64,000 nt of DNA from Chrysomallon squamiferum (GCA_012295275.1 CM022671.1:33108001-33172000), one strand, 5' to 3'; positions 3,424-51,951 are shown, counted from the stretch's first letter. Translations and numbers: made by a program. Notes: generated from the letters alone by a model not told the origin.

Positions 3424-6400
3424 ATGGCTGACATCCTAGCAAATCTACAAAAAGAAGGCATTCACAAGAAGATTATTTATCCTGGAGTTGGAGAAATTCC
3501 CGACTACAAGGATGGAACAAGAGTATTATTAGATCTATTTTCTGAGATTGTTAACTCTCTTTATATTCATAATATTTTTAGAATTTATGTTAAAAAAAAC
3601 ATTAAAATAAATTATTATTATTATTATTATTATTATTGCAAAGTTTAAAAATAATTTTATAAATTTATTATGCAGACCGTATAATGTTTATAATTATTAA
3701 TATTTGCCATTTAAACTAATTTAGTGGGAGTAGTAGTAGTAGTAGTAGTAGTGTAAAAATGAAATAAATTCAAACATGTTTATAACGTTTAAACAATTAA
3801 AACATTTTTTTAATTCCTATTACAGATAACATTCCATTATCGTACCACCAAAACAGACGAAGAGAAGACTATACTTGATGACAGCCGAAACCACAGTAAA
3901 CCAATGGAACTAATAGTGGGCAAGAAATTTAAGCTTGAAGTTTGGGAAATTTGCCTTAAAACAATGAAAGTTAAAGAAGTTGCTGAATTTCTTTGTGATA
4001 CTAAAGTAAGATTATTTAAGTTATTTTTTTAAAAATGTTTGAATCAGGAATTACCAATTTTTTTATTATTAATTTAATTTTATTATTGTGCAGTTATTAT
4101 TATTATTTATCATTTTTGTCAAAATAATTTTTGTTTTAAATCATTTTATTTTTAATTTTTTATATATTATTATTATATTTTATATTATTTTTAAGAAATA
4201 ATTTACATTTTTCAGCAAACAGCTATTTATCCTCTTGTAGCTAAGAGTTTAAGAAAAATCCATAGTGGAAAGAAAGATGATGACCATCATGAGGAACAGC
4301 ACTGTTGTGGTATGATGGCTCTGTCAGAACACGGCCTCGGCCATGATGACCTCAATGAACTGATGAAACATCCACAACCACTCATTTTCACTCTAGGTAT
4401 TGTATTTTTATTTTATTTTTAAATTATAATAATATAAAAATCTGTTTCATTGCTATTTAAAGAAACTAATATTTTATTTATATTTTTAATTAAAAATAAC
4501 AAAATTAATATGCTTGTTATTAGAAATCTTAAAAATGGGAATCTTGTTGGTGATAATTATTTCACTCAAGCTATTTTTCTATAAGAAACATAATTAAAAT
4601 ATTTTTCTTAAAGTTGTTTAAGTATAAAAATCATACATCTAGCATTTCAAACAGGATGTTTTGACCTTCTCTTGATAAGTGCATTTTAAAAATCTCTTGA
4701 TGCTAACAAGGTAAAATATTATTTCCACTGAAAATTATATATCAAGAATCACAAAATATGTGAAATCAACAAATTGAGCTGCTTGCTATATTGGTAACAA
4801 AAACTGTTTATTTTAATGACACATTACTATTGATAGGTGTTATATGTCAAATAAGTTTATATATATTGAACAATTATGTGGGATAATACAGACCTTAGTA
4901 ATTTGAATACTGATATATCGATATACTAGTTACAGTTTATTTTTGTTTTTTTGTTCAGATGTATTAAAAGTTGAAAATCCAGGAGAATTTGACAAAGAGG
5001 TTTGGACAATGGATGAGGATGAAAAACTATCTCAGGTTCCTGTCATAAGGCAAGAAGGAAATCAGCTGTACTCACAAAAAAAGTATGATGAAGCTGCCAA
5101 AAAATATGCCACTGCCATAGGAATGATAGAACAACTTCTACTTAAGTAAGAGTTTTCTTATATTTAGTTAAATGTTAATGGTACATAACACATTTTATTG
5201 CTATACATTTTTATTAGTAGAAACTCATCACCAAAAACTAATAAACCAATAACTTGCAATTATACAAAATATATTTAGATCATTGATATAGTTCACCAAA
5301 GGTACTGACGGTAGCTAAATTATCTTAAGTTACTTCACTTGATTTGCATTCAGTGTGCTGTCTGATGTATATGTTTCCCATCCCAGACATTGCTTTATAA
5401 ATATAAAAAAAATATTCTATTTGTCTTTTTTTTCACAGAGTTTATGCATATGAATGAATTCTTGAAAGATACTAAATTCAACTATCAAACAGACCATGAT
5501 ACTTTATCTTGATATACAGTTACTTTTTATCTTACCATTTATGAACAGTGTTAAACAACTTGCTTGTTGTCATTTATTTACTGTCCAAAATATTTGCAGC
5601 TTTTTCACCTGACTCTCAAATTATGACACATTCATGTCACTATTCAGTACTAAAACAACAATGAATCATTTCAACATAGTTTATTAAAAGAAAATGAGCA
5701 TGTTTCCATTAAGCTGTATTAAAATAAAAATTTCAGTATTGTTTGAAAAGAAAGCAACACAGAAACATTTTTGTAAAGTTAAACGACTTCAGTAATAAAC
5801 AGCCAAATATCTTGTTCATAGCAAATCTCCAATGGTAGCAATAATTTGATGAAAATAACAAGCAAATTAAGATATCAAACGATGATGAAAAAATAATTGT
5901 TTTCACATGTCATTATTCTCAGTTCAGGCAAGTACATACGATAAGATGTAATCTGCTTGTTCTTCACACAAATCAATTTGTCTTGCACAAAAACATTTGT
6001 CTTGATGTTATGCTTTGGATACTTTTAATTGTATTAACAAGCCACATTTAATTACACTAAATTCTAATTACAGGTATCTTGAAACATACTAAATTAAAAC
6101 CTTAACTAGAAAAGGCTTAGTCATTCTATATTCAAACTTTAACCATATTTCATATCCTGAAACAATACATAGTTTTTTTATCTGGCAGTTCTCTGATTAG
6201 CAATTCAGCAACTTTTTTCTTTTTCTTTTTCTTTTTTAACAGAGAGAAGCCAGGAGATGAGGATTACATTAATCTGGAGAAAATGAAGATTCCACTCTTA
6301 CTGAATTACTCCCAGTGTAAACTTCTACAGAATGAGTACTACCCAGTAATAGAACACACAACAGAAGTCCTTAAACTTGACCCTAGTGAGTTGCAATAAT

Positions 6401-6874
6401 ACTTTCAAGTAAATTTTGAAAAATATTCACATTTGTCAACAGTTTCATTCTAAAAAATTTACATAGCAAAATGTTTGATTATTTTTATTATTTTTATTTT
6501 TTATTTTTTTGTAAATAATAATTATTAACATACAGCATTATTAACAAAGATTGCTCTTAAATACAAAATAATCAATTTAAAGTAAATATAAAATCTGTTA
6601 AACTTATTGTTAACACCATACAAAATTATTCCAAAACAAATTATATACATGAAATGATGATTTAATTTCAGACAATATCAAAGCATTGTTTCGTAGAGCT
6701 AAAGCTTACGTTGGTGCTTGGGATATAGATGAAGCAAAAGCTGATTTTAACAGAGTTATGGAACTTGATCCAAAATTGTGTTCCACAGTAAAACATGAAT
6801 TGAAAAACGTGGAAGATATTTTGAAGGAAAAGGAGAAACAAGAAAAACAGTCATTCAAAGGCATGTTTAGCTGA
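3424..6874 (+). CDS. AIP: AH receptor-interacting protein (FKBP-type domain + TPRs), 330 aa
   Basis: Six GT-AG exons 3424-3522, 3826-4005, 4216-4396, 4959-5145, 6243-6385 and 6672-6874 total 993 nt in one frame. Translation [40 protein letters not shown]...[17 protein letters not shown]...HCCG...[11 protein letters not shown]...[14 protein letters not shown]...FKGMFS closely matches recalled AIP/XAP2. Confidence 0.95.
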
Positions 6875-8147
6875 CTCTAAAGAATTTTAAACATTTATTA
6901 TTTATTTATTGTTGTTACTGTTGTTGTTGTTTGTTGTATATTGTTTTGTTAATAAACGTGAGCAAGATGTTGACAGACAGTTTGTTCTGTTTTTATTTAA
7001 TGAGTGGGCTTTGTACCAGTATATAAATAAAAACGATGAAGATGAGGTGGACATTTTTAAAGTTTTTTAATGCTCAGTTTCTGTACTAAAGAAGAATTTA
7101 TTTTTGTTTGTTTTCTGCCAGTTGTAAACTAACTTTTATGCTGCTTAATAGTTATACTTGCATATTTATTCTTTTATTATTATTATTATCATGTAACCAT
7201 AACATACAGATATTTGTAACATTCTGGAAAGAGAACATTTTGTGTGACTGTGTTAAGCAAAGTAGAAGTTGTGACATTACTCTAAATTTTTGTTTTGTTT
7301 TTTTTAGAGATTTTAGCTGTGTTTTTTTTTTTTTAGGAAATAATGTTTTTATTTATTTATCTATTATTATTATTATTTTTCTTTTCTTTAAATGATTTTC
7401 TTTATGGAGAAAGTGATATTTATTTATTTATTTATTTTTAATAATTAAATTAATGATGTAGATAAAAACTGCTTCTTTTGCTTATGACTATTGTTAATAT
7501 ATTTATATTAGTCTTTTTATAAAATGTCTTTCTTAAACCATCCTGATTGTTTAGTTATTGATCCTACATCCATGTTATTTACAACCAACCATTTTACAAT
7601 GTCAAAAGAAATTCGGATTATTCAATAAAACCAGTATCGTGTTATTTTATGTTTTGTTTTGTTTTGTGTTTTTTTTTTCTTTTTAAATTAATTATTGTCA
7701 TTGTTATTGTTGTTATTTATTTAGCCACTGACATATGAAATTATCATACATGCAACCAAACAATCAACTGAATGATTTATATTTACCGAAAATTCGATGA
7801 TATCAATCTTAGGCCGGAATAACTTACATATTCACACAAATCACATACATCAACACACAAACATGCCTGCACTCAATTTTATACACATTTACATTCACAC
7901 AGATATATAGATATTGACCAAAGTACATTTTGCACGAGTCGGTGAAACATTCGCTAATTTTACATTAACAGTTACAAGCTTATGCGCGAACGTAAACCGA
8001 CACATATACCAAATTTCTTTAAAAGGCTACAGAAAAACAACCAACATAAAGACTGTCATAGTTGTATAAATAGTTTAATTTGTGACAAAATCCATGGGTG
8101 TGCGATGACAACAACAAGCGATAGACATTATGACAGCGTGACAACAC

Positions 8148-10976
8148 TTAAATGCATTTCTTCTTGCGTTTCTCTGTAGCACCAAGTTGTACCGTGTTAA
8201 TCTCAGCCTGAAGCTGAAGTTCGGCCTCTTCCATCTGAATTTTTCTCTTTCTCACCATGTCCTTGGCAAGAGTCAAGAATAGCTGCAATAATAAAAGGCT
8301 AATAAGATATATTACATTTAACGATGGAAGACTGAAAGAAACGTAATAATATATTATTATCAAGTCTAAATAACTTAATTTTAGATCTGTCTGTGTGTGT
8401 GTGTTTATATTTAAATATATACACACGTACATACTAGTACATTACAATGGACAGGAAAAACAACCTAAATAAAAGAGGTTTATCACCTTTAGTTTACTCA
8501 AACGAAGTTTCAAGATTACAAAATTGGACTAAGCAGTACACATATGATCAGTGTTTCTAAACTATCCTAAGGATAATATGCAAAAACCTGATTCTTAAAA
8601 ATGTTACAGCATATGAAAATCTAAGTATGTTGGCATAAAAAAGATGAGGAAAGAAATAAATAAATAAAAGAGAGAGAAAAGAAAAGAAGAAGAAAGAAAA
8701 TATACAAGAAAAATCTGGAATAAATCGATTTGTGAAATAGGGACAGCTTGTATTCTTATTATCCAAATCTTCATGGAGGTAGTAGTAAACTCTAATCCTA
8801 TTTTCAATGATTATTTTTCTATATGATGTTTTCAGAAAATGTTGCTATTTTCAAGACTGTTTTACAATCGGCTGCTAATTTTTCATCAATAAAATATAAA
8901 GCTTATAATACGCTGAAATAACCATTATTGTTATAGAACATTCTCCAAGTAATTTAATACAGCTTAGAAATGTTTTAATCAAAGGTTTTTGTCTGAACCA
9001 AAAGTATGAATAATTAATAGCACAGAGTTTATAATCTCTGTTAACTTATTTTATAAAAATGTGTCCGACGACAGCTCTACCCCAAGCAGAAAGAGTAATA
9101 TTTATAGGGTTTTATTTATTTATTATAATTATTCATTCGTTTTCTTTATTTATTCTTTTATTTTGTATTTTTGTATTTTTTTATTTATTTTTTTTATTTT
9201 TCACTTTTTGGCATGGTATCAGAAGGGATTCATTACCGTTATCCCATAAATTTAGAATTTACACTGACTCATTCTGTCACTTACGACATGTCATTTCTGC
9301 TTTCTAATCAATAGCCTACAGACCACTCTAATTGTAAGCAAAGAGTAATCTGCAATGATAAACTTGGAAATATATGAAATATATTTAGGTTATCTGTTAT
9401 AACTACAGGTAATGCAAATGATTTGGCTGTTTGGAGAAACAAGGGGAATTTCCAACGTACTTCTTCCACGTCTGCCTTTTCTTGCAGTCGCGTTTCGTAA
9501 AATTTCAGATTCATCTCATCAGCAAAAGACTCAGCTTCCTCAGTCGACACTTGTCTTTGTTCCTCGGACGGACCCTGGGCTCCAACTGCCAGTATTAAAT
9601 TGAAAAATATATAAATATATAAACAGTGGTCTAACAGGATGGGATGTAGAAGTCTTCATAATACGTGACTGTTATTTAAATAATAGGGTTTTTTTTATTG
9701 GTTTTATTTTATTTTATGTATATATAATATTTGACTAACAAAAACAAAAAAAATAAAATAAAATAAAATAAAATAAAATAAAAATAATAATTAGGATGTA
9801 TATAGTTTCTCTCCTCCCGGATTCACATGCCATCAGAAAAATTAAATCCCTTTTTGAATAATTTAGGCCATAAAGCTGTTATCTTATTACATGTGTTTGA
9901 TTTTTTTTTCGGTTCTGAGAAAGCCAGTTAAAAAAGGATATGGAAAAAAACTTTTTAAAAGAAAGGACTTACCAAGTATTTTGATTACGGAGCTGTCACA
10001 ATTTTGATTAATTTCGTAAAGCCAGTTTGGAATGTGTGTGAAAGTGGTTTTGTCGCAGAATTCGTACATTATTATTATTCCACTAGTGCCTCTATAGTAC
10101 CTGGAAATATTTAGTCAGTCTAATTACAACTTATTCGTATCTGATAAGATTATTATTATTATTATTAGTTTAAATTATCTGTCTGTCTGTATATCTGTCA
10201 ATCTGTCTATTAATTTTTTTGTTCACTCTATATTTTATTTTAACCTTTTTATATTTATTGGCAGTAACATTAGAAATGTAATGTCTTTATGGTCATTATC
10301 ATTATTACTATAATTATCTTACTAGTATTTATATTTCTATAGCATATTATCTACAAGTCTGTGTGTTTCTGCCTATCTGTCTATCTATATTTATCCATCT
10401 ATCTACTTATCTTATTTATTTATCTATCTACCTAACGATTTATTCATAACATAAATGATAATGCAAATCTAGATTTCTTTCTTTATAACTCCCTATTTTC
10501 TGTAAGGTCAACACTTATGTTGACAGCTCAGTCCGAAGTAAACAGACGTACGTTGAAACGATTTTAAAAGGGTGCATTTCTGCTGTGTCCCATATCTGAA
10601 GTTTAATTTTCTCTCCGTCGATCACAAGATTCCGAATTGTGAAATCACAGCCAACTTTCGTTTTCTCTGGGAAAAAATAAATAAATGAAGCAAATACCTG
10701 CCTTATTTAAGAACAGTTATAATTTATTCAGTTAAATGCTGGAAAGGAGACTTACATAATTTTTATTTTTATTAACTTTATTAGTTACTTTTGTCTTTCT
10801 TTCTTTTTTATAATGGAAAATATTTTTAAAATATGTAAAAAAAAAAATGTATCGAACTTTTTGATAAAGATAACATCATAATGTTTTAATATATGGGTAT
10901 GAATGCATGAATTCTAAATTCTGATTTATTCATTCATTCATTTATATATTTATTTATTTATTTATTTATTTATTTA

Positions 10977-11055
<79 letters not shown>

Positions 11056-11234
11056 TTGTTATATAATATATTATAAATACTTTTTAATAAAATTAATATT
11101 TGACTTACCAGTTGTAGTGCTGTCAGCAAGGTGAACCAGTTTGGTTTTTGGAACACCTATTTGAACAGAATATGATTAGAGACATCAAAGATGTTAAATA
11201 ATGTACTGATAGAGCAAGAATAATAATAGAGAGT

Positions 11235-11305
<71 letters not shown>

Positions 11306-12078
11306 TTGTTAAAGAATGTCAATTAGATGAAAGAATATGGACATAACATTAACAGTAAACAGCGCCATTTGCATGAAACTGTATTTATCAATCTATCTGT
11401 CTATCTGTTTGTTTATTTCTTTGTTTGATTTAAATATTTAGAAAATGTTGTAGGATGGCAAAACATCTTATAAGCATTAAATAAATCATCATTGTTCGGT
11501 GAAAATTATAATTGCCTAAGCGAGTCCATTTTCGAACTACCGTGATAGAGAATGTATTTTGACAATGCCATGTTCCTTCATTTGTGCTATCATCATTTTC
11601 TTTGCAATAAACGTCTGTGATAGGTGTTTATTATTATTATTGTTGTTGTTGTTGTTGTTATTGTTATTTATTTATTTATTTATTTTTTTTTTTTTATGTT
11701 ATTGTTGCTGGTTGTGGAATAATAATAGTGGTAGCAGAGGTAATAAAACGTATCATCATCATCATAATAAGCAAAAATAATAGAAGCTGTAGCAACAGCA
11801 GCAGAAGTAGCAGTAGTAGCAGTAGTAGTAGTAAGAGTAGGAGGAATGTTGTTTTTAATGATTTATTTCCTGTGACTGCTTTGAAAACATTCCTTTATGT
11901 TAAATTCTGCATGCACGTCGTTTATATGAAGTCTTTGTGTGTGTCAGTATATGCTGGTACAAGAGTATGTATCTATATAATATATATTATTTTGACTCTT
12001 AAATTAAGTGGTTAGCCCAGTATTTCTATTTAGTGTATTTTCTGTACTCATCTCTAATATATACTGGTTTTATTTAAA

Positions 12079-12121
<43 letters not shown>

Positions 12122-12674
12122 GAAAATAAAAATAGATGAATCACGGATGAAAGAGTATGAAATAAATTTTGATATATTCATTTGTATGCTCATTCTTTAA
12201 TTAATGAAAACGTTTTTATTACGAAATATTCTTTTACGTTAGAGTACACACACACATATCTATATAGTTCATGTATTTATTTAATATTTCCTGTGTTGTC
12301 AATATTATTTTCCTTTTTGGGGTTGAGGGAAGGTTTTGATGCCATAACAATGACATAATGTATAAAAATACATGTCTAATATTAAGGAACAAAGAACATA
12401 TGAGTCATGTTTTGGCAATCGATATTTTCGAACAAAAGTAGGTCGGCGTAAAAAGATGCAAATTTAAACTATTAAATACGATAATATATCGCAGAGCAAT
12501 CACTAAATAACTATATTTACTGTATTAGGCAATCAGATGACATCACAAAATTAATGAGAATTAAAATAACTTCTCTAACTGCTATTTACTGACTATTTAC
12601 CAGCTATGAAGCTTACACTTACCACTGTCGCCGACAACAATCACTTTAAACAGATGATCGAAATGTTTGGACAT
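8148..12674 (-). CDS. Divergent Rab35-like small GTPase-fold protein with degenerate G motifs, 200 aa
   Basis: Six GT-AG exons 12674-12623, 11156-11109, 10666-10552, 10100-9973, 9585-9461 and 8282-8148 total 603 nt, in frame and without stops. Rab35 hallmarks are present: [37 protein letters not shown] and a polybasic tail KRKKKCI. Confidence 0.88.
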
Positions 12675-13137: not shown

Positions 13138-14792
13138 TTTGCTTCTTCCTACTTTAGAGATGGTAAATATTAATGACTCCTTGCTGCTAATAAATACATT
13201 CACTAACACACAATACCATATGGTATTATAACATTTATTTTAATTTCATGTCAGGTACAAGGAAATCACCTGTGGCATTTTACAAAAAAAAGCAAATATT
13301 CAAAATAAGACCAAAGTCCATTAGAATATTTCCTATTCAGTCTCCAAACCCATGTTAGGAACATCAAAACATTATTTAACTGATGTTCTGTCTAAAGAAA
13401 CCTATAACATAAGTTACATGTAACAGCAGCAAAATTAATTACAAAGAACCAATAACATGGCAAATATTTTATTTTCCACAAAACATACATGGTAATTATA
13501 GTGATAGTACTTTTACATAATTTTAGACACTTTTTCTCTCACATCTATACACAAGGTGTTCTCGGCAGATTGCTTTGTGTGTACCAACCTCAGCAAACCA
13601 TCGCAAGTTCCATTCATTAATTTTAATGGTCTGCACTGGCAATACAAAATACTAACCAATATAATAATGAGAAAAACCCCAAAGAAATTAAATGTTAGCT
13701 TATGGCATTATTATTATGTTTTAAACATTATCACTAACATATTATATGATCATGTTATGTTATCACTGCATTATAAATGTTAAAATATCACATTACTGCA
13801 TAGATACGTGTAATTATCACTACAATAATTATAAACATGTTAAAGCATTACATAATCATAGATACAGGCCTACAGGTAATTGATTATCATATCTTTAACT
13901 ATCATGCTGTAATGTACATATTCATTTTAATTATAAGATGTCAGTTATCACTTTATCTAATCTGTATGTGCTCACTCTTTACAAATATTTTCAATGAATA
14001 AACAGTGCATAATTAATATTCTTATGTACCCACTCTTAGAGACATACAGATATATAAAGCATTTACATAATTATAAATATTAATAGCACACTTGCAGTAA
14101 AACCAATATTTCAAAACACAAATATGATAACTACTGAAATGATCATCACACACCACTGGACAAATGGGAATGCTGCATCACACGCTGAAAAAGATAAATA
14201 TTATTTTTATCAGTTCAGCTGAAATTTTATAATATATTCCATATTTATCACACCAGAAGCTGAAATTATATCTAAAAAAAACAAAATAAAAAACAATCAT
14301 TTTAAACATCTGTAATCCTCTCATTGTCTTATGCTGTATCTTTTTATATCCCTCTCTTTGGGTTAGTTGTTCTGTCTCATTTTTTCCCTGTATTTTATTT
14401 TTAATTACTGTTACACTCTACTCACAATGGCTCTTACATTCTTTCTCTAATTTCCTCTCTCCAAGTCTCTTTCTGTTTAACTAATTAATATTTGAAAATA
14501 AATTATTTTTAAAAAAGACCAAAGACAAGAACACAGAAAAAGATACTTACTTGGATCTGTTAGATCTTCTTGCCATGATTTTGTTTCACCACAAATGTCA
14601 CACACCAAACAATTACTGTACGGGAATCTTCCACCTTTCTGAATGCACTAACCACGCACTGTACAGTAATCCTCCTGCAAATATTCAAACACTAATTACA
14701 TAATTTATACACATTTATTATTCACACCTTTTAAAGTAAGTAATTATCATTGAATAAATTATGAAAAATAAATCAATATAAGTGATTAAATA

Positions 14793-14855
<63 letters not shown>

Positions 14856-16229
14856 CTCTCAGATTTGTATTGTAAAAGATATACTTTAATAATCTGCTGC
14901 TATGTAAAAATATGAAGTACTAACTGCCACTGTGCACTGTACAGCACTGTTGACAATTTTACACGTTTGACAAGTGGAGTTGTAGATAACAACAACGCTC
15001 TCCTCACTGTACACAACGCCGTTGTTGGACACAGAAACAAGGTAAGCAAGAGGATCATCCACTGCTGGGGCTCCAAGTACTGATCTCTTGTTTCGAAGAA
15101 CTGGGAAGCCACAGTTGATTTGGAAAATATTTTCTACATGAGCAGTTACAGAGTGTGTGTTGGAAACGCATCAGAAACTTCATCCTCCTTTTCCTGTGGT
15201 AAACAAAAGGTTTTTAATTGTTTTGTACGAATGCACCAATAATTTGATCTATATTTAAACTATACCTGATTTAAAAAAAAAAAAATACTGAAAATATAAT
15301 TCTTAGACTGATAAATGACAAAATTATTATATGAAAACTTTCCACTTTTCTGACAAACACTGATCACAATATGTGCATTACCTTGCAATAATTCAAACAA
15401 AGTGAGCATTAAAGATAGAAACCTTAACACCTCAAAATCTGCAAACAGCACTAGGATTGTCAACAAAAGTCTCTCCAAACAAAATTATTTCAGTGCAGGA
15501 GTCTTCATTGAGATCACAAAGACCTCCAAAATCTACTTCACTTATCACTGGAGGAGACAACAGATCAACAGAACAATCTGGTCCTGAGAAGTTTTCATTA
15601 CACTTACAAGAGCCTGTTGTAGAAAAAACAGCAACACAAAAAAAAAAACAAGTTATAATACCCAAGCAGATAGAAAAATAAATAGATTTAATGCTATTTT
15701 TAATCAAAGTTTCAATCTATAAAACACACACACTCACACACACATATCCATAATTTGAAAAACACTAACACTTGGTTACTGTGACAACATTCATAAAATA
15801 CCTTTCATTTAAAAAACTGAATAAAAATATATTGAAATATTGATGCACTTTTATTTATCTGCTTGGATAAAACAAATAAATATAATGTATAAATTCTACC
15901 ATTGATACAGACTCCATGTCCAGAACAACCACTTGGACAGGTGACTTTGAAAACTTTGTCAAGCAGTGATTTCCCATCTTCTTCTTTCTGCTGGTAAGTG
16001 GAGTTCATGACCACCATTTCCCGAGTAAATGTTTCAATAGCATCAACAGCAGCATAGACAAAAGTGGTGTTACCAGTTGCCTTAAAATAAAATATGTAAA
16101 CAATTAATAATATAAATCTAGAAAAATACCACTGTTAATTTTCAGTAGAAAATCAGTTTGTCAGCCTTCTAATTTTAATAACAATCGTAAGTTTAAAACA
16201 GTCTGAAATATATATTACTAGTAGTTGAT

Positions 16230-16520
16230 AGGAGACTTATTTCCAGCTCCATAATTATCATATATAATGATTTGTACTAGACCAATACAGACTTACCCAA
16301 ATAACAAGGTTGTATCAGATAATTTTTTTTTTTTAAAAGCCACCTGGATGTCAAACACTATCCTAGTTAGTAAAACAGACTTATTCAGATGTCAAGGTTT
16401 GTATTAGTTACTAAAAAAACATAGACTAACTCAGCTGCCAAAGTCTGTACTAACAAACACTTATACAGATTTCATAATGTGTACCAGCTACTAACACACA
16501 CAGACTTACCCAGATGTCAA
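16230..16520. repeat. Degenerate ~40-bp tandem repeats of the exon-13 donor region
   Basis: Several decayed copies of CAGACTTACCCAGATGTCAA (reverse complement of the exon end plus GTAAGT). A homologous array lies at ~46070-46280. Confidence 0.55.
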
Positions 16521-17251
16521 ATACACAGTCTCTAATGCTGTTGATGACATTAACCTCTGGGATGTTTTTAGACAGTTGTACAGAAGGAAGAGAATTCAAG
16601 TGTTTTTCACAGTATTCAGTTGCAGACTCATTGGTCCATCCATTTAGCCAAGCCTCTGCCTCCTGTTAAGTACAGTTATAATAATATAGAAAAATAAACC
16701 AAAACATCTTTAATACATAATTATTATAATAATAATTATATTATAGAAAATTAATGATATACAAACAAAACAATTCTGAATGCTGTATAAGTTATAAATA
16801 TTAATTTTATTATTGGAGTTTTTGTGCATCTACTACTGTATTTAAATGATATAAATAAAATTAAAGGATATGCACATATAAACATCTTACTTTATTAATA
16901 TTATTATTACTGATATGTATGTACACTTGAGTTCTCCATGTCTATTAGTGTTGCACTGTTACTGAACTTTATATACTTGCCCTCTTTTCCACTGTCAATG
17001 AATTTAGGTCTGGAGTATATTTTGGTCTCCTGGCTGATCTTTTCTTTATGGCATGAACATTACATCGTTTTTGATGTGGTACAACTACATTAATCGGCTG
17101 ATCTTCTCTGCAGTTTGTTACTTCCTGCTTTGGAGTACAAAGAATTTCTGTACATGGTGGATTTTTACAGTTTCTGCAGTTGCAGTATGATTTAGCCTGA
17201 TCCCAGTTCTCCAACTGTCCATAGTTGTCAGATTCAAACAGGTTGTTTTCA

Positions 17252-17825
17252 CTGTCCACTCTACAATACACAAAATTTCAACATTGCTTTAACTGTCCAC
17301 TCTACAATACACAAATGTTCAACACTGCTTTAACTGTCCACTCTACAATACACAAAATTTCAACACTGCTTTAACTGTCCACTCTACAAAACACAAAACT
17401 TCAACACTGCTTTAACTGTCCACTCTACAAGACACAAAATTTCAACACTGCTTTAACTGTCCACTCTACAAAACACAAAACTTCAACACTGCTTTAACTG
17501 TCCACTCTACAAGACACAAGTATTCAACACTGCTTTAACTGTCCACTCTACAATACACAAGTATTCAACATTGCTTTGACTGTCCACTCTACAATACACA
17601 AGTATTCAACACTGCTTTCACTTTCCACTCTACAATACACAAAACTTCAACACTGCTTTAACTGTCCACTCTACAATACACAAATGTTCAACACAGCTTT
17701 AACTGTCCACTCTACAAGACACAAGTGTTCAACATTGCTTTAACTGTCCAATCTACAAGACACAAATGTTCAACATTGCGTTAACTTTCCACTCTACTAT
17801 GCATAAGTGTTCAGTATTGCTTTAA
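17252..17825. repeat. 41-bp minisatellite, 14 units, built from the exon-12 splice acceptor
   Basis: Unit CTGTCCACTCTACAA(T/G/A)ACACAA..TTCAACA(C/T)TGCTTTAA starts at 17252, 17293, 17334 ... 17826. On the minus strand each unit reads ...ttgtag|agtggacag. Confidence 0.93.
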
Positions 17826-18772
17826 CTGTCTGCTATACAAAACTCTAGTATTCTTTTCATCTATTACAAGTATTCAGTATTATAAAAAGTTTTTGAAGAT
17901 GGACTGATGCAGACATTTAACTTTTTAACATACCATTTCATATATAAAAATGTAAAAAGAAAGAAAGAAAGAGAAAATAAGAAATATAAAGATTCCTGAA
18001 AATGAAAATATAGCAGCAACTTGGCAATAATTTATAAGGTTTCTTTTATTATTTAATTCTTCAAACAAAAATGTGATGAAAATATGAGAAGTGTCATCCT
18101 CTACGTTTCCTGTGTACTTGTTATTTTATAGCTATATTTTATTAATATTAAAAACAGAAACAATCCCTAAGAGAAATGTATCGGTATCTTGGGTAAAAAA
18201 GATCATATTCTACCTAACAATTTATGCATCCTTATAAATGTATTCTTTAAGACATTTTCAAGAATAGCAAACTTCAGTCAGAGAACAACAACAAATGATA
18301 ATTTCCAAAATCTACAATAAAACTTATGTTTATATGTCACACGTCAGTAATAATCAGTCAAACACAATCGTACAATCTCTAATGATTCACACACATTATA
18401 TAATACACCAGCATTCATTTTCAACATGATCTGTGATTATTAACAATATAAAGAAAAGATTTATTTTTATAATGATGCAATAGAATAGCAACACTACTGT
18501 GATTATACCTCCATGAGTTGGAAAATTCATGACCCCAGGTTGACTGTGTTTCATCTCTTAATACAAAATCATCATCTGTTCTATTGGAAAATTTGCCACA
18601 AAGTCCTCAACTGTTTTCAATGTCATGAACTGATGGGCTTATATAGACGTTGAAAAATTTGCTCAAATGAAAATGTACAAGTGTTCCAGTGGGAATCAAA
18701 ACCTGTTAAACAAAAATATTTTTATTTTATTTTACTGAAAACAACTATAGAGACATTATTATTATTATTATT

Positions 18773-18807
<35 letters not shown>

Positions 18808-19280
18808 CAGTTATTATTACTATTATGATTACAATTATTATTATTATTGTTGTTGTTGTTGTTGTTGTTGTTATTATTATTACCAGCAATAAATGCTTTA
18901 ATAAACTTTTGTAATCAGATTATGTACTTGTAAATGTATTTCTAAAAAAGACATTTGATTTATTTTCATGTAATTGTTTTATTTTAGATACCTGCTTCTG
19001 CTAGTAATAAAGTATTGCTATATAATAATAAGACTAAATATTATTATGTTAGAAACCATTTTCATTTCACATTCAACTCAAAATAAAAATTCTAAATAAA
19101 TTATTATAGCTGCCACATCATTACTCTCTAAAAGATAATTACTATATTTTATTGTCATGCATTATTTTGTATTACCAAGCATAATGTCCAGATCTACATA
19201 ATGAATGTATGCAGCATTCCATTTTTAGCAGATTAAATATTTTTAATAATAATGATGATGATGATATTATAATAATAATA

Positions 19281-19315
<35 letters not shown>

Positions 19316-21739
19316 AATAATAATAACAACAATAACAACAATATATTGTTATTATTATTATTATTATTACTTGATAATCTGCATCATTTTTCTTCCTGAC
19401 ATCCAAGACATCATCAACATCATCACACAGAGTGAATTCCAGTCTTCTGTGACCATGACATCATTGAACCACAAACACAGATTTTCCTGCTCGTATAGCA
19501 ATACCACACACGCAGAAAGCACGGTTATTGTTACAAGGTGTGGTTTCTATCTGCACCTGTAAAGTGTTAAGCAGTTAGTGAAATTCTAAAGTCACCATCG
19601 GTAAATGTCAACAAAGAAATATTAATTTATTAACATTTGTTTATGAGACTTTATTTTTTAATTTATTTATTTAAATTATGTCAAGTGTTAAAAGAAATAT
19701 GGATTTATTAATGGATTTATTAATGTTTGTTTGTGAGACTTTATTTTTTAATTAATAAATCAATTTTTGTTTATGATTAAAACATATATAACTGACTTTT
19801 TAATTAGGAATATGTACAGTAGATAATAACACTTCTTAGATATTTCAGTAAAGTTTTCTTACAAGATCATCAGATCAATACTTGATATTTTAATTATTTT
19901 TTTAATCTCATTATATCAACTTCTGATTACAGATCAGCTTTTATAACAACATTTTTCAGTGCATATTTGTAGTAATACTGAGATATCTCACAGTATTTGG
20001 TTAACAAATCCATGATAATTAACTATGACCAAACAATCACTTGTAAGCAAACAGAATATTTCTTCTCATATTGAAATTAAATACAATTTTATGAATGTCT
20101 TCTGCTGGTTGTATGTTTGTCATTGTCTATAAATGAATTTTCTTTACCTCAGCTTGGTGTTTTATGTTGAAATAGAGAGTGAAATTTCCCATGTACTGGT
20201 GTTCATAATATCTGAAAATTAAAAAATACTGTGAAAATATAAAAATAAAAAAGATTAAAAATATTTTTTTAAATTTATTCATAATATTTACAGTATTAAA
20301 ATACTACTTTTATTTTGGCATTCTTATGAAATGAATCTTTTAAACTCTCCACTTCCATTTATTTCTTTATAACAGTCTTTGCTGATTCAAAAATGTCAAA
20401 TGAAAATAGCAACCCACAAAGAAAGATTATGTTTGTCCTCTTATCTTTAGTGACATCAGAAAAACACCTATGTTTATTATATTGAAATATTTTATTGTTA
20501 ACAAGGGTTGCCTCTCATACATTAAAAACAACTATTTGGATAGTATAATAAAAAAATTACCCAGTGTAAATTGTAAACTTATAAATTTATTAATTTTTAC
20601 CTAATATGAACTTCATTAAAATAATATCTTTATTTACTTTCACTGAGTTCTCATACAGTAACAAAAATATACACTAAAATGTGTAACTAATTGACTTTGG
20701 TTAAGATTAATTTAGGGACCATTAATTTGTGATATTACTGTAAATGAAATCTGTTGGTAATAAAGTAAATATTATGCACAGAAATAATAAGAAGAAGAAG
20801 AAAAAGAAGAAAAAAGAAGAAAAAGAAGAATATTAACTGTCAGAATTATTTGTTGTAACATTTATGTACTTACATGCCATCAAATGTCAACATATGTGTA
20901 CCACTGACTGCATGGCATATTTTCCCTTCTAACATCCATGTGTCCTTGTGGGTTTCAACCTAAAACATTTAAAATATATCTTTACTGTAACTACGATATA
21001 ACTTTTGTACATTTCCAAGTGATATTTATTTCTCAACAACAATCTTTGATAATAACAAAATATAACTATACTGTAACAAATTCAAGAGATGCATATTTTT
21101 TTTCTCTTTTTCTTTGATGTTATTTTGTTACACAGAAATGTAAAAATCAAAATCTGATAAACAAAGAATTTTTTACTGATATACTTTTATTGTTGAGTTT
21201 GTTTACTTTTGCATTTTTTTACATTTTTATGAAAACATGAAATGATGCATTAAAATAAAAAAATAATAATAAATTTAAAAAAAATTATAAAGCATATTTA
21301 AAATAAAAAAATATAATTAAAAAAAAATAGAAACTATCAAAAAATAAAAGGTGTCCAAGGTTTCTTAGTTTACTGCTGTATTTCAGATTTAACAGAGATT
21401 TTTAATGTGTAACAAAAAACAGTAACATGGATATGTAACATAACCAAGACTATTAATTCATACTGTGATCATTTGCACAGAACAAAACACTGAGTTGGAA
21501 ATGTATAACAGTAATTTGGCTATGTGTTCAGAAAATATATTACAGAATCAAGATACCTTACCACAAATCAAAGGTTTTTGGAATATCAGGAATGGGTTTT
21601 CTTTTCTAGTCATAATATTTACAGTGTACAGTTATGTGAACAGAACTAGACTGATATTGAGTATTTCATTTAAAATCACATTAAATAGTTGCTGTAAGAG
21701 AGAAAGAACTGAAAAAGAAATAATGATGATAATACAAAC

Positions 21740-21832
21740 CAAGTTCTTACAGGGACATAATCCAATTGGACAAAACACACTGAATTCACTAGCTTAACAA
21801 AAAAACCTGGAAGATGTTATCCTCAAACCCTG
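21740..21832. mobile_element. Small decayed MITE-like remnant shared by both duplicates
   Basis: GGACATAATCCAATTGGACAAAACAC ... GATGTTATCCT motif; an orthologous remnant lies at ~50420-50540. Confidence 0.35.
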
Positions 21833-22795
21833 AGCCATCCTATTGTTTAAAAAAAATACTAACCAACAGTTATCCTTTGATAAGTTTTAAATAATAATAC
21901 CAATAAAAAAACAAAAATTGAAAATTAAAATTTTAAAAAAATGAAAGGAAAAAGTAATATTAGAAATACATTTTCAAAGAATAATTAAAAAGTATTGCAT
22001 CATACTGTAACACTTCCGAATGAATTATAGTTGGACCAGATCTTGTGTTGTAGAAATGTTCCTGTTCCAAGTTTTAATGTCATTGTTGATGTGGTTCTTT
22101 CAGTTGACTTCACATTATTTTTCATCCTGACAGTGAAATTGTATATTTTCTCCCAATCTCTGCTGTTCACGTTTTGTATACATTTAGATATTTTGAGAGT
22201 TTCTCCTTCACATACATTAATCTGAGTATTTTCTAGAAGAGTCACTCCCAGTGAGCATGGTCTGTTATGAAAACAACCAAAAGGGGCAGTCAGTTGGAAC
22301 TTGACCTCACCAGTATCACCAGGTTTCAAACTTATTCTTGTTGTTAGAAGCTGGAAATAAAAAATTGTATCAAACTGTTTTCCTGAATAATATAAGGAAA
22401 TGTAAATTCATATATTTATCATTTATAATAAACTATTTATCACATGTGAAATAATTATCAATTTTAAAAAAATATTTTGCAGTTATTTCTAAATAAACAA
22501 GATTAAGAAATAATTAAACAGTCAAACTGCATGTTATTTTTGTGTCTACTTACCTTTATTCCTACATAGCGAGACTTGCTCAGTCAGTTTACTGCCTGCA
22601 GAGTCTTCTTTGTAGCTTGCTCTCACACAACAACTTACCTGAAAACATATTAAAATATACAAAATAAATACATTATAAATACATTACATAAAAACATATC
22701 AATTCACTCATATATACTCATTGTTTATAACAGAATATTTGAATTTTACATTAATACATATAAATTATGATTTCAACCATACACTGAGTTACATT

Positions 22796-22846
<51 letters not shown>

Positions 22847-24339
22847 GCAACACATAAATGTACATGTAACATATATAATTATGCAGAAATAAACAACATA
22901 ACATGTTAAATGCACATATCCATACACACAGAACATACCAAGACATAACATTATCATCATCATTATTATAGCAAGTTAGTTAAACAGTAAGTACAAATGA
23001 TTCAAAGCAGCAAATGAATTATATACAAAAATGGTGATGATGATAATGATGGTAACAATAAAAATGTTGGAATAATACAAACATTATGATATGTATTATA
23101 ATAATAATCATCATCATCATCATAATTATTATTATTGTTATTATTAATATTATTATAATATAAATATTTAGCAGTGTAATAAATTCTGCTATCATTATTA
23201 AACAAAACAAAATGAACCAAAATACCAACACAAAAAAACACCACAAAAATCAAAACCAAACAACAATACAGAAATAGTTTATATATTACTCACATAAAAA
23301 CCAACCCTGGTTATGCCATTTTCAGTCAGATTTCTCTCATCTAATTTGTTATTCTGATCATGGTTCTGTCAGAGATATGATTTAGAAATGGAGAAGAATT
23401 TGTTATCAATATACCAATAAATCTTGTAGAACAGATTTTCAGGAGATTTTTCAAAGTTACAGGAAAAACTGAATTTTGGAAGTATTCCATCTTTAACCAA
23501 ATCCAAAGCAATGGTAGGTATGCTGGAGAACTCAGGAACTATATAATCAAAAACGATACTATGAATAGTAATAATAAGAACAAAAACAAGAGAAATAATT
23601 GAATATGCAGCATTTATTAAGTTTAAAGAGCATGAAAAATAGCTTTATATATTTCAGCATGATTTTGGTTTTTTACTGTTATTTTAATATGATTTATCTG
23701 CAGAAGAAAAATGCATACATAACTTCTATATACATTCAGATGATCTTTTATTCACTGATACCAACATTTGGATTAAAATTAAAAACAATGAAGCATGACT
23801 ACATTTCTGCTTAATCTCAGGCTGTTTTTTCTACTGGTCCTTCTCATTAGCATAGGTTAATGGTAGAAACAAATGAAACAGTACATTAATTTTATTTACA
23901 ATAAGAACATTTTAATGGCTACTAGAATTTGAAAATACTATTACTTTCAACTCAAAATACAAATCTTTCACTAGAATGATAATACATAGCAAAAATGTTA
24001 CAACTTACCTTTGGCTGCTGAACCTACAAAATAAAATCATTTGGGTACAGAATATGTAAACAGTGAATGCCTGATTAGTAGGTGAAATCAGTGTCATTAA
24101 TTCAATAGTTAAATAAAATGTTTCAAAGCAGAATAATTAATTCACATTACTGAACCTAACAAATCTAATCCATCTATCTATCTAACTATTTATTTATTTA
24201 TTTATTATCATTATAATCATTATTATAAATGTGTTTGTTTTTATGCTTACTCAGATAATAGCCAGAATATGATGGAGTTTGTTTGAGATAGTCCACTTTG
24301 GGTGTTTTTATAGTTTGTGGCTTGCATACAAAACAGATT

Positions 24340-24725
24340 GTATATATATTTGTAAGTGTGTGCTTGTAAATATGATAGTGTGAGTCTGTGTGTGTGTGTG
24401 TGTTTAAAAGTCACTCATGATATTTATTAGACAGTAATCTTTAAAATAAAGAAAATATTTGAGTAATATGTAAATTGTTCTTAGGCAAACCCTGTGGAAA
24501 CTATTCTCCATTTCCTAATAATGAAAGATGTTATGTCAATTATGAAGTGGGAGAATCAGATTCACCAATTAATGATCGATATATCACTGAAGGATAGTAT
24601 GGAAGTAACTTAGAAATAGCATCAGCTCCCCTGAGTCCTTACAAGTGTGGGACATTTTTTTCCATATGTGCAAGAAAAAAAAGTACTATTCAACCAAACT
24701 ATGATGCATCTTTCAGAGGCATGAA
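24340..24725 (+). pseudogene. Inverted exon 2 of VWDE-like copy A
   Basis: The + strand reads ttag|GKPCGNYSPFPNNERCYVNYEVGESDSPINDRYITEG*YGSNLEIASAPLSPYKCGTFF, homologous to minus-strand exon 54837-54643. It is flanked by inverted repeats at ~24390-24470 and ~24726-24790. Confidence 0.9.
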
Positions 24726-25374
24726 CAAATATTTTCTTTATTTTTAAAGATTACTGTCAAATATCATGTGTTGCCTTTAAACACACACACACGAATTATT
24801 CTGTATTTATGTATAATATATATATATATATTTATGTAGGCCTATATATGTATATTCCGTTTTTTATTTAGTTAATTATAATTTTATTAGGAATACAAGT
24901 GTAATTAAAGTAACAACTGTTTTGTCTATTGTTTGTCATTGTTTTAATTACAGAAATGATATTTCTGACTTATTTACCAGTTTCGGATTTGTACAGTATA
25001 ATAGTATTAACGGGGTGGACATAAATGCTTGGATTTTTGTTTGGTTGGTTTAATTTTTTTTTTTTATTTTTTTTTTTTTTTTTTTTTCTGTTAATTTATT
25101 ATTATTATTATTAATTATTTTAAATACAACCTTATACACATAATACAGCATATCGAATTGTAACGAGCTGCTACAAATACCTTGAACCTTGAAAAACATT
25201 AACGTGCTAATCAGAGCAAGCTGTTGTGAAGCACGTCTACGACAGGCACGCTTTCTGACAGGTCAGCGGGCATGTCTGTCGCAGAAAAGAGTTTTGGGTA
25301 AGGAAAGAGAGTGGGTTCTCGTTACGATTGCAGGACACATTCTAAAAATATAAGAAAAGGTACTTAAATAGCAT

Positions 25375-29243: not shown

Positions 29244-30460
29244 TTCGGCCGCCATGTTGTCCCACAAACGGTGTGTTTATGTAAATCATTGTTAGGTTCA
29301 ATTGTTCAGCAAGCGTTAACACGTCCTATGTTAGAAGGCAATATGTATTGGCACAATGGTGAAGCGATGGGCTTGGGGGACATGCAAATCGGTTGAACGG
29401 AACGAAAGTGGACAGCATTTGACATTTATACCGTTTCCGAAGCCGAAAACGCAACAAGAAATTGTTTAAAATGGATTCGACTATGCGGACGACCACATTC
29501 TCAAAAAGAAAGTCACTTATAAACATGAACATGTTTTCAAATAATAATAATACACACCGTTGATATTTAGCTAGATACGAATTACCAAATATAAAGAATA
29601 TACACACACAGCCATTGAACAGAAAAAAAGAAGAAAGAAATGTTTTATTTCATGACACATTCAACACATTTTATTTACGGTTATATGGTATGGTTAAGTA
29701 CTACACTGTATTGAGAGAGAAACCCGATGTTGCCACTTCATGAACTACTATTTTTTACTAGTAGTACCGTCCCACAGAAAGGGTAGCATATACCATTCAT
29801 GGTGCACCGGTTGGATCAAGAAATGGCCCAGTAGACCCACAGTGTGAAAAAATAAATAAAAACTGTATGTTGTGTGTAAAATGCCAATGACAAAATTTGA
29901 CTGTGAGGTAATTCAATCTAAACATTTGGGCGATCTATTGTAAATGTTTAACTATTATAAATAGTCTTGACAATGCAGCTTTACGACACGCTTGTCATTT
30001 GTTATATTCTGGTTTGTTACTTTGTTTCTTCATTGCACTAAACCATTCTAATATCAGTTTAATACCAAAATATGCCCCTCCAGCCTTACAGGAGCAGTTA
30101 GTCTCTGATGGCCGTTTCGTTCCCAAGAAAATGCGGTTTGTGTGCCGAGTAGTTTTTCCTCATGGAACGCCTGCATCTCGCATTCACTATCGGTTGATTT
30201 TCGACGGAAATTTGTATATCGTGGATGTAGCCTTGCGCAAAATAATTTAAACCTTTCTCTTGTGCTTTTCTGGAAAGGCCCGAGCTCTCAGGAAGATATA
30301 AAACCGAAACATCATTTGGAATACTTTTTAGATTTCCATCGCCGTCTGCTACTGATTCCGCCATTTTGGAATGAGCTTGTGTGACGTAGTAACAGTAACT
30401 AAGGGGGCGTGGCTTTTAATAATAATAATAATAACCCACTAAGGGGGCGTGGCTTATAAT
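29244..30460. mobile_element. Internally deleted THAP-transposase + SWIM-protein DNA transposon (ISL2EU/Harbinger-like)
   Basis: From 29356 the + strand reads MVKRWAWGTCKS...FIPFPKPKTQQE-(frameshift)-CLKWIRLCGRPHSQ (THAP-like). A convergent minus ORF from 30364 reads ...KGLNYFAQGYIHDI...ARCRRSMRK then, after a frameshift, NCSCKAG (SWIM-like). Absent from copy B. Ends are approximate. Confidence 0.65.
29630..29842 (-). mobile_element. Degenerate SINE-like interspersed repeat nested in the THAP element
   Basis: AAGAAAGAAATGTTTTATTT..GACACATTCAACACATTTTATTTACGGTTATATGG...GAGAGAAACCCG..GCCACTTCATG...CCCACAGA..GGTAGCATATACCA resembles an abundant gastropod SINE tail and body I recall; not verified by search. 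Confidence 0.55.
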
Positions 30461-30936: not shown

Positions 30937-31680
30937 CATTAAAATTATTTCCAAGCTGCGGACCTTTGTCCATGAAAAGATGGAGAAACCGTAACCTTAC
31001 CTTGTCTTACGAGTTTAATTCGTTCGTGCCCGAGGTCGTAACTCAATTTGCTCGTATATCAAATCAATTTCCCAAATGAAATTAACTGAAATACCATTAA
31101 CCCGTCAAAGCCCCCAAAAACCACCCCAATTTTTTGTAACGTGTTTTTAAATAAGAAAACAATGTTTTTATAAATAACAAATATTGTATAAAAACAACAT
31201 AAAAGAGAATGTAAAGAAATAAATTGGTTTTGTAAAGTGTACTTAGCTTGCAGATCAGACAAATTATTTTAACGCCTTTGGCTGAAGTTACAGCCTTTAT
31301 CGACTTTTTCTGCTTCAGTATGGTACATATCTTAAAAGTACTACGCTTGTACTGCCTAGCCAAGTCGACTACATGCGCACCTTGATCATGTTTTTCTAGG
31401 ATTTCATACTTTAATTCAATGGACACCATACGCTTCTTCTCAGCACTGTCGTTCGCACTCACTTTTTGAGGATCCATGATCAGAAAAAAGAAATTTGGCA
31501 AACATTCTGCACAAAATATGAGCACAACACAACAGAGATGCTTCAACGGCGAGAAAACCACGTGATGTAAACGAGTGAGACGCGGGATGCTGGGCGGATG
31601 TTGTGTTGTTTGTTGCGCCAACTAGCGGCGGCGTATCTGAAGCTCGTTCATGACTGAAGTTTGGCTCGTAACTCAATATT
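30933..31680 (-). mobile_element. Tigger/pogo (CENP-B-type HTH) transposon fragments, rearranged
   Basis: Minus strand reads MDPQKVSANDSAEKKRMVSIELKYEILEKHDQGAHVVDLARQYKRSTFKICTILKQKKSIKAVTSAKGVKII (HTH-psq-like). Its continuation GIKIISKLRTFVHEKMEKP lies on the + strand at 30934-30992. A terminal-type sequence CTTACGAGTTTAATTCGTTC sits at ~31005. Confidence 0.8.
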
Positions 31681-35600: not shown

Positions 35601-36485
35601 ATAAATATAAATATATTTTATTTGTCAAAACAATTATTATTATATATTATGTTTATTGTTATGATAATAATTGATTTATTAACTATATTATTATCATCAT
35701 CATCATTATTATTATTGTGCATGCAGGTATGCGTATATTATATTTCATTTGAAAATTATATGAATCACTTAGACTAGTTACATTTTGCTACCAGAGAAAT
35801 GAATTGGTAGTGGATAGACAAAGTTGTTACATATGCATGCCTATTGGTGCATTTTACAGTCTAACGGCTTTATCCGCTGTTGGAAACGATATATTCTCGG
35901 AAAATATTTTTACCATGGCATTAAATTATAAAATAAACCACACATACACAAAAAATACAAAATAAAAGATATGTCTGGATTTTTCAGATTTCTGGAAGCC
36001 GGATAAATGGTTCGGTACTTCTTTAGTATCTAGGGTTTCAAGTTACTAAGACGTATTGGACAAAATTACGTCTTTTCGCACGTGTTTCCTCAGCCTCTAT
36101 AATATATATATGCAGGGGTCCTCGAGTTACGTCGGAGATCCATTACTACAGACCGACATAAGGCGATTTTTGATGCAAATCGGAATTACCATAGCCCAAG
36201 TCACATACCTAACCTAAAACACCCTAACGTCATAAGTATATCAAGAAATAGAACTAAGCCGTAGGAAAATGACAGGGAGATCTTAATTATAGTACAGAAA
36301 AATGACAAAACTGAAACAAAACAAAACAAACACAAAAGTGGGAGAGCGGATGTAAAACAGAGTACCCAAATAGCTCATGTTGGGACCCAAGTTCTGCTTC
36401 AAGTCGAAATTTTGTTTTTTAAATTATTTATGGGATTACTCCCGTAATGTCGAAACGGCGCATGTCGAGAAACCCCTCTGTGTGT

Positions 36486-36555
<70 letters not shown>

Positions 36556-37489
36556 ATAAGGTGGTCTGAGTGTATTATATGACGTTGTTTTCAAGGGTTT
36601 TTTTTGTGTTTTTTTTTAAATTCAAAAAATAAATTAAAAAATTCATGTAAAATTATCTTTTAAGATAACGTGTGGCGTACGAATAAGCTATGAAGACCTG
36701 CCAGGTGGAAGTGTGCCAGTTTTCGGACAACCAGTGTTCTTTGACATCAAGGCAAATGTTTCCGTAATCTCTTTGTATTTTCTCTTAAGTACATATCACA
36801 ATTCTGTTGAACTGTTGTTGGGCCCTTTTTTTTTTTTTGGTTTTTTTTTGTGGTTTTGTGGGGTTTTTCTTTCTTTCTTTCCTTAATTTTTATTTTGACA
36901 AACAACAACACCAAAATATGTATTATTGTTAATTTTGAAAGAAGAGAAAGTGACAGAATCCAGAAATCTACTACCATTAGTAATACTATAGTATTTTATT
37001 GTTAGTAAAGCTTGGTGTTTAGTTAACAAAAATAAACAAAATTAGGAAGTATTACAAATTTTATATGTATGCTGCTCTTTAGTTCGCTGTTTTTCATGCA
37101 GGATTACTGTGTTCCTAATGGAGAATGTAATGAGATTGGTTCTAAATGTCTGGAAGACGCATGTTTGGTGTGTTCAGCCTCTGAAAAGGCAAAACCTGGC
37201 AAACAGATCCAAGTAAGATCCTTCCTTCTTCTTCTTCTTATTATTATTTTACGACTGTGATTGTCAAAATGTGTACTCACCACAAACGTACGCACAATAC
37301 ACCCTGCACACACAAATACTAATATAATACAAATACAGACTCACATACATACATACATACTGTCGACTCCTATGATACAGAGACATTTCTTATGGTGCAG
37401 AATCTGTAAATTAAAAAAAAACCAACATAATTTAGTCATCAATAAGACAGGTTTTAACACAGAAACGAACTTTATCTATCAAGTTATAA

Positions 37490-37543
<54 letters not shown>

Positions 37544-42181: not shown

Positions 42182-42233
42182 CACTGTCGCCGACAACAAT
42201 CACTTTAAACAGATGATCGAAATGTTTGGACAT
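42182..42233 (-). pseudogene. Orphan duplicate of Rab35-like exon 1 with partial promoter
   Basis: Identical 52-nt coding exon [17 protein letters not shown]|GTAAGT. No downstream Rab exons follow, and ~80 bp of the upstream CpG-rich region (12786-12865) is deleted. Confidence 0.9.

Positions 42234-44447: not shown

Positions 44448-44532
<85 letters not shown>

Positions 44533-47940: not shown

Positions 47941-48002
<62 letters not shown>

Positions 48003-48982: not shown

Positions 48983-49018
<36 letters not shown>

Positions 49019-49860: not shown

Positions 49861-49913
<53 letters not shown>

Positions 49914-51906: not shown

Positions 51907-51951
<45 letters not shown>

Follow-up and report, generated by a model that had tools for sequence, protein, structure and literature searches.

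Several small GTPase folds are known in which the nucleotide-binding motifs have degenerated. CENP-M, a class-i pseudoGTPase, has a small-GTPase fold nearest to the Rabs, has lost its G motifs, and serves as a fixed assembly module that was shown not to bind N-methylanthraniloyl (MANT) nucleotides (PMC4080450). The pseudoGTPase domain of AAGAB is a nucleotide-free G domain acting as a protein-binding module in membrane traffic (PMC12490416), and two free-standing small GTPases, EhRabX10 of Entamoeba (PMC8514894) and microsporidian ArlEM (PMC13393502), have been called pseudoGTPases from their degenerate G motifs. Here we describe a further candidate, encoded on the minus strand at positions 8148-12674 of a 64,000-nucleotide stretch of Chrysomallon squamiferum DNA (GCA_012295275.1 CM022671.1:33108001-33172000; the window). 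The gene, which we refer to as pseudo-Rab35, derives from Rab35, and the best reading of its sequence is that the protein is a neofunctionalised class-i pseudoGTPase that would act as a constitutive adaptor.

The comparison with these systems is instructive. CENP-M, an ancient protein of the kinetochore, has neither switch I nor strand 2 (PMC4080450), whereas pseudo-Rab35 is apparently young, can be traced to one named Rab, and keeps all strands and a lipidation-type tail. The AAGAB domain is part of a larger conserved chaperone and binds through loops outside the switches (PMC12490416), whereas the switch block of pseudo-Rab35 is the part least changed between species. EhRabX10 is less damaged, keeping G1 and the Lys and Asp of G4 (PMC8514894), and ArlEM belongs to the Arf family (PMC13393502); both are from parasitic unicellular lineages, and in the available parts of these reports neither is presented as an animal gene that arose by recent duplication and sits alongside its parent. 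Rab35 itself (PDB 6IF2, 3TW8 and 6EKK) is the best sequence match among solved structures and falls in the same clade, but it is only ~45% identical to pseudo-Rab35, in which both switches are shortened. We found no published description of pseudo-Rab35 in the literature, and databases label its ortholog Rab35-like; the word Rab is absent from the main text of PMC7895826 and PMC7736800, and Rab35 is absent from four supplements of PMC11871041.

Descent from Rab35 and changes at the nucleotide site

The six coding exons of pseudo-Rab35 span 603 nt, giving 200 aa and one terminal stop, and all five introns are GT-AG. The protein carries the motifs GDSGVPKT at G1, TKVGCDF at switch I, DTAEMH at G3, AQGP at G4 and ETRLQ at G5, and ends in KRKKKCI. 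Its indels relative to Rab35 are in frame (L24, Y37-I38 and T72 are deleted, one residue is inserted after D111, and the tail is longer), their exact placement being alignment-dependent. The uninterrupted frame, splice sites and in-frame indels proposed in the initial annotation are thus borne out by the spliced exon model. We take the intron positions to be the same as those of RAB35.

The Rab35 origin put forward in that annotation is likewise upheld, both by structure matches and by phylogeny. The orthologous protein of Gigantopelta aegis (P0001, described below) matches Rab35 best among solved structures (164 bits, against 140 for Rab1), and exons 3 and 4 of the window gene each match Rab35 first. 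In a tree of 48 rows, comprising 24 named Rab35 sequences, 22 unnamed rows and the snail pair, the pair joins Rab35, leaving Rab1 and Rab8 outside, with support of 99/95; the unnamed rows, including the outgroup, were labelled by motifs that we assume to be characteristic. The G domain is of Ras type (Pfam Ras E 5.7e-38), with a score of 130 bits compared to 200 for one canonical Rab35. The pair is placed at the base of the Rab35 clade, as long branches tend to be, and its position within the clade is loose, with forced nesting in spiralian Rab35 not rejected (approximately unbiased test p 0.51, 22 rows). The stem of the pair measures 1.93 changes per column and the distance between the two species 0.093; the lineage changed in a burst and then almost stood still.

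To score conservation we used 107 of the 119 canonical Rab35 hits, the remaining 12 having been removed for length. Among 15 nucleotide-site residues 12 are changed, compared with 41 of 97 other invariant sites (Fisher p 0.007), and radical changes are found at 9 of the 15 against 20 of the 97 (p 0.003); the set of 15 was drawn from textbook consensus and fixed after the alignment had been seen, and the locus had been chosen for the same trait, which makes these p values optimistic. When invariant polar sites outside the switches are used for comparison the enrichment is modest (p 0.03; with the G. aegis ortholog, p 0.08). The 12 changes are G20P, S22T (an allowed substitution), F33T, T40K, G66E, Q67M, N120A, K121Q, D123P, S150R, A151L and K152Q, and a Pro at position 20 occurs in none of the 107 canonical sequences. 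All of the guanine-recognising residues F33, N120, K121, D123, A151 and K152 are gone; guanine contacts are made by G4 and G5 (PMC5902221). Exchange factors (guanine nucleotide exchange factors, GEFs) release nucleotide by displacing an aromatic residue of switch I (PMC5902221), which is absent from pseudo-Rab35 through the replacement of F33. From these residues, loss of guanosine triphosphate and diphosphate (GTP/GDP) binding is likely.

The damage is neither complete nor confined to the nucleotide contacts. Every G box contains a non-consensus residue, and the G1-G5 set of a canonical Rab switch is not present, which agrees with the initial annotation that all G boxes are substituted; but G15, K21, Ser/Thr22 and D63 survive in both species. 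Similarly, the proposed concentration of changes on nucleotide contacts holds as an enrichment, although the switches have a further 25 invariant positions outside this set, of which 10 are changed or deleted. Changes in the core are mostly conservative, with 3 of 39 invariant hydrophobic sites radically altered. F45, W62, Y77, T76, T81 and the loop-7 motif are kept, as are RabF2 and RabF4, whereas RabF1, RabF3 and RabF5 are altered (motif boundaries are those we take to be standard). At the C-terminus a single Cys at position -2 follows a polybasic run in both species, the second Cys having been lost; among the 119 canonical hits a CC ending is the most frequent, and some have YC or FC. The isoelectric points of the pseudo-Rab35 proteins are 5.2-5.8, compared to 8.3 for a chiton Rab35.

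An AlphaFold2 model of the G. aegis ortholog has a Ras fold with a predicted local distance difference test score (pLDDT) of 71 and matches Rabs at Z 20-21.5, and an Atlas model of the fold agrees (predicted template modelling score 0.79); ESM Atlas matches are to generic Ras/Rab clusters only. By this predicted fold and its degenerate G motifs the protein is a candidate class-i pseudoGTPase. Helix 1 and the switch II helix are shorter in the ortholog model than in a control model of canonical Rab35, which is a weak hint. The ortholog model also lies closer to GEF-bound Rabs (root-mean-square deviation ~3) than to GTP-bound Rabs (~4.2), but this likeness was rejected since the canonical control shows the same pattern, as well as the same low confidence in switch I; on these models it is an artefact of shallow alignments.

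Conservation in Gigantopelta aegis and expression

With exon 4 as query we recovered P0001, a protein of 200 aa labelled 'Rab-35-like' from the vent snail Gigantopelta aegis, together with P0002, an unnamed fragment of exon 4 that is one residue away from the G. aegis protein. P0001 aligns to the window protein without gaps, has 16 differences in 200 positions (92% identical) and carries the same broken G boxes, except that G4 has Glu instead of Gln and the Ser of G5 is retained, its change to Arg being limited to the window species. Where Rab35 columns are invariant, the two species share 46 of 48 derived residues. The P-loop-to-switch II block differs from the Rab35 consensus at 30 of 68 positions, and residues 15-78 contain only one of the 16 interspecies differences (p 0.018).

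The neighbouring AIP gene, a housekeeping gene, provides a yardstick for the rate of change. AIP shows 41 differences in 330 residues across this species pair (88% identical), so pseudo-Rab35 evolves no faster than AIP (Fisher p 0.15). In neutral simulations scaled to AIP (substitutions only, with indels uncounted; 1000 runs per setting), 16 or fewer differences were seen in 0 of 1000 runs at each assumed AIP ratio of nonsynonymous to synonymous substitution rates (dN/dS) of 0.5, 0.3, 0.2 and 0.1, and in 5% of runs when AIP itself was neutral. The implied dN/dS for pseudo-Rab35 is approximately 0.06-0.3 by simulation, and the frame stayed intact in both lineages in at most 8% of neutral runs at AIP dN/dS <=0.5, indels again not counted. 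The 92% identity of pseudo-Rab35 beside the 88% of AIP therefore argues that pseudo-Rab35 is very likely under purifying selection.

In the window a C2H2 zinc-finger gene, AIP and pseudo-Rab35 follow one another, and the G. aegis annotation table (PMC7895826) lists a zinc-finger gene, AIP and a Rab35 without a KEGG number in one block of contig 369. A second G. aegis Rab35, with KEGG number K07876, is on contig 1702; it is listed in the proteome table at 22,675 Da and is paired with a gene of another peltospirid in the synteny table (PMC7895826). The computed mass of P0001 is 22,932. We infer from position, labels and mass, rather than from the two sequences, that the contig 369 gene is P0001 and the contig 1702 gene is canonical. 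The existence of a second, KEGG-assigned Rab35 elsewhere in G. aegis indicates that pseudo-Rab35 is an extra paralog; of the points that the initial annotation asked to check, conservation in a second species and a further Rab35 gene in that species are supported. We note that the G. aegis Rab35 next to AIP (supplement 6 of PMC7895826, row ctg369-3.1-1) bears Gene Ontology terms for protein depalmitoylation, which are probably an annotation transfer error.

The range of pseudo-Rab35 appears to be one snail lineage. The 120 best of 807 hits and the 150 best of 41,082 representatives included no other full-length relative above 50% identity, and no ortholog DNA came out of two metagenome-contig scans and a third scan of prokaryote genomes. 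The homologue searches covered transcript-only data from other gastropods sparsely, and the gene may occur more widely. The split between the two sequenced peltospirid genera has been dated to 66 and to 116 million years, figures that apply here only if the window species is that distant.

The gene is transcribed and spliced. Four RNA runs contain 17-31% of the sampled words of 7900-10760, where exons 3-6 and a short 3' untranslated region predict ~18%. Contigs from three of these runs, plus X5, were compared with exon 3 and its flanks: exon 3 is fully covered with no mismatches by contigs in X1 and X3 and for the most part in X2, and the intron bins flanking it have no cover in the contigs compared. 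The loose contig ends equal exon 2 (X1 and X3) and exon 4 (X1, X2 and X3), showing that junctions 2-3 and 3-4 are spliced, as the initial annotation required of its mRNA, and therefore that the shortened switch I is a spliced product rather than the result of a missed exon. Letter-level splice support is limited to these two junctions, and junction 1-2 is consistent with the length of X3 contig 5. A contig of 767 nt in X3 is as long as the six exons would be together with a 47-nt leader and a 117-nt trailer. Additional Rab contigs from X2 and X3 were considered as Rab35 and rejected, as they read as Rab2 by a motif that we take to be diagnostic.

Gene layout and neighbourhood

Coordinates of pseudo-Rab35 and associated features in the window.
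Feature	Position	Strand	Remarks
Exon 1, coding part (start codon to first half of G1)	12623..12674	-	52 nt; matches start of ortholog P0001
Exon 2 (rest of P-loop, shortened helix 1, F33 replaced)	11109..11156	-	48 nt; loose ends of X1 and X3 RNA contigs equal window 11110-11139
G1 core	11143..11151	-	G20 to Pro, K21 kept, S22 to Thr (allowed by G1 consensus)
Exon 3 (switch I with two residues deleted and G2 Thr to Lys, interswitch, G3, start of switch II with T72 deleted)	10552..10666	-	115 nt; RNA contigs
G3 box	10575..10589	-	D63 kept, G66 to Glu, Q67 to Met
Exon 4 (YYRGT motif, strand 4, helix 3, loop 7)	9973..10100	-	128 nt; best PDB sequence matches are Rab35; joined to exon 3 in X1, X2 and X3
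Exon 5 (contains G4 and G5)	9461..9585	-	125 nt; collinear with P0001
G4 box	9569..9580	-	NKxD to AQGP (AEGP in G. aegis)
G5 box	9482..9490	-	SAK to RLQ (SLQ in G. aegis)
Exon 6 (helix 5, tail with polybasic run and single Cys, stop codon)	8148..8282	-	135 nt including stop; last 15 residues identical in G. aegis
AIP gene	3424..6866	+	6 exons, 330 aa, intact; synteny marker and rate yardstick; tail to tail with Rab gene
Orphan exon 1 copy	42182..42233	-	With upstream DNA and ~110-140 nt of intron 1; carried by ~29.5 kb tandem duplication

A tandem duplication of ~29.5 kb occupies 12481-34450 and 42040-64000, with 70-83% identity in long blocks and mostly 90-98% in exon-rich blocks. Its boundary lies within intron 1 of pseudo-Rab35, such that an orphan exon 1 and its upstream DNA are present at 42182-42340; an 80-nt piece upstream of exon 1 is absent from the duplicated copy, and there is no second copy of exons 2-6 within the window. 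The 54/54 identity of the orphan exon was considered as a special feature and rejected, given the similarly high identity of exon-rich blocks in the duplicated neighbours.

Among the other contents of the window, the region 1-789 and 1321-2013 holds the C2H2 zinc-finger reading frame, which runs off the window start, and a further long Ser/Thr-rich open frame upstream on the same strand. The duplicated unit contains multi-exon genes that resemble VWDE-like proteins on both strands (14000-25000 and 44500-55000, minus; 33300-38000 and 62800-64000, plus), in which Pfam places a VWD domain at 47661-47879 and, weakly, EGF at 15435-15716; no VWDE-like gene is named among the seven ctg369-3 annotation rows of G. 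aegis. A tandem array at 17243-17853 has a period of ~41 nt and ~15 copies, and the duplicated unit holds ~2 units near 47022-47114. Dispersed repeats with short frames, some of them inverted, are located at 31262-31646, 34589-35249, 30239-30409 and 39109-39276, and the frames resemble what we take to be the helix-turn-helix of DNA transposons.

Possible functions of a probably non-switching Rab

On balance, the residues lost and kept lead us to favour a reading in which pseudo-Rab35 is an empty, non-switching G domain retained as a membrane-tethered adaptor through its remodelled switch face. Rab35 would have been duplicated in the snail lineage with the parent copy retained, a burst of change would have abolished GTP/GDP binding and remodelled both switches, and the new surface would then have been fixed by purifying selection, with partner binding independent of nucleotide state. 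The polybasic tail and single Cys may still direct the protein to Rab35-type membranes, and output would be governed by the amount expressed rather than by cycling through GEFs together with GTPase-activating proteins (GAPs). As a first guess, the partner may be an endosomal recycling component that still uses the F45/W62/Y77 patch. The kept K21-D63 pair may support the empty P-loop, as in nucleotide-free Rab35 bound to DENND1, a complex in which K21 pairs with D63 and Q67 (PMC3919270).

Several points weigh against this reading. Prenylation requires recognition of the G domain by Rab escort protein (PMC5902221), and RabF1, RabF3 and RabF5 are altered here. Nucleotide-free GTPases are frequently unstable (PMC4905258), and the phosphate- and Mg-binding Lys, Thr and Asp are kept here, leaving room for some ligand. 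The rate argument employs one yardstick gene and an approximate conversion; all four RNA runs are from one study and their contigs inform on neither level nor strand; and the G. aegis Rab35 next to AIP is absent from the proteome and differential-expression tables of PMC7895826.

An alternative is that the empty protein is a decoy that traps the GEF of Rab35 (the DENND1 family) or an effector, damping canonical Rab35. There is precedent in Ras, Sec4 and RhoA mutants, whose positions we take by motif register to correspond to G20 and D123. Nucleotide-free GTPases are tight ligands of GEFs, Ras mutants of the G15A type are in use as GEF baits in pull-downs, and Sec4 D136N associates with its own GEFs (PMC4905258), while RhoA G17V shows better GEF binding and is dominant negative (PMC5927519). 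K21, D63, F45, W62, Y77, T76 and T81 are kept and a second Rab35 gene is present in G. aegis, in favour of trapping. But a decoy predicts that the docking surface of the parent is preserved, yet other invariant switch positions are changed or deleted as noted above, Q67, required for DENND1-catalysed exchange (PMC3919270), is now Met, and T72, an ACAP2 contact (PMC7322127), is now deleted. With Q67, T72 and part of switch I lost, a decoy mimicking the parent becomes less likely, and we consider it unlikely overall. The sponge for GEFs or effectors suggested in the initial annotation is weakened accordingly, whereas a new or narrowed partner fits better with the sequence. More doubtful still is the fuller version in which pseudo-Rab35 would be a natural dominant-negative Rab35, a lipid-anchored and permanently empty paralog that sequesters a DENND1-type GEF or Rab35 effector and so tunes endosome or phagosome recycling solely by its level of expression. 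If true, an animal would here have a free-standing decoy Rab alongside the parent gene, possibly linked to the handling of intracellular bacteria. Rab35 family expansion has been reported in a symbiotic clam (PMC9993606), but a link to symbiosis was rejected here for lack of support, the G. aegis gene being missing from the differential-expression table noted above.

The surviving G15, K21, Ser/Thr22 and D63 in both species, together with the residual Pfam Ras score, would suit an atypical binder, in which the P-loop still holds phosphate, another nucleotide or a weakly bound guanine nucleotide and is hydrolysis-dead or fast-exchanging. Such a protein would have to function with every guanine-recognising residue lost, with Lys in place of the G2 Thr, and with Pro in place of a P-loop Gly whose backbone NH contacts phosphate, and we regard it as less probable than either form of decoy. 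That the gene is a relaxed duplicate on its way to becoming a pseudogene, or is transcribed without giving a relevant protein, would agree with the very long stem branch, the occurrence only in close relatives and the lack of a peptide in the G. aegis proteome table. Yet the protein is at least as conserved as AIP, the frame is intact in two species, every splice site of the window gene is canonical and nearly all derived residues are shared; with a transcript present and a rate that is not neutral, decay is very unlikely, and this part of the initial annotation stands.

The pseudoGTPases considered here for comparison are ancient or lie inside larger proteins, which makes it difficult to follow how a switch turns into a scaffold. 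For pseudo-Rab35 the parent is a known and well-studied gene, Rab35, that apparently persists, and two species have the derived residues fixed. The snail gene thus offers a small system in which to test how a G domain can keep its fold with no nucleotide, and what a dead Rab is retained for. Were the decoy explanation to prove true, it would represent a genetically encoded form of Rab regulation besides GEFs, GAPs and GDP dissociation inhibitor.

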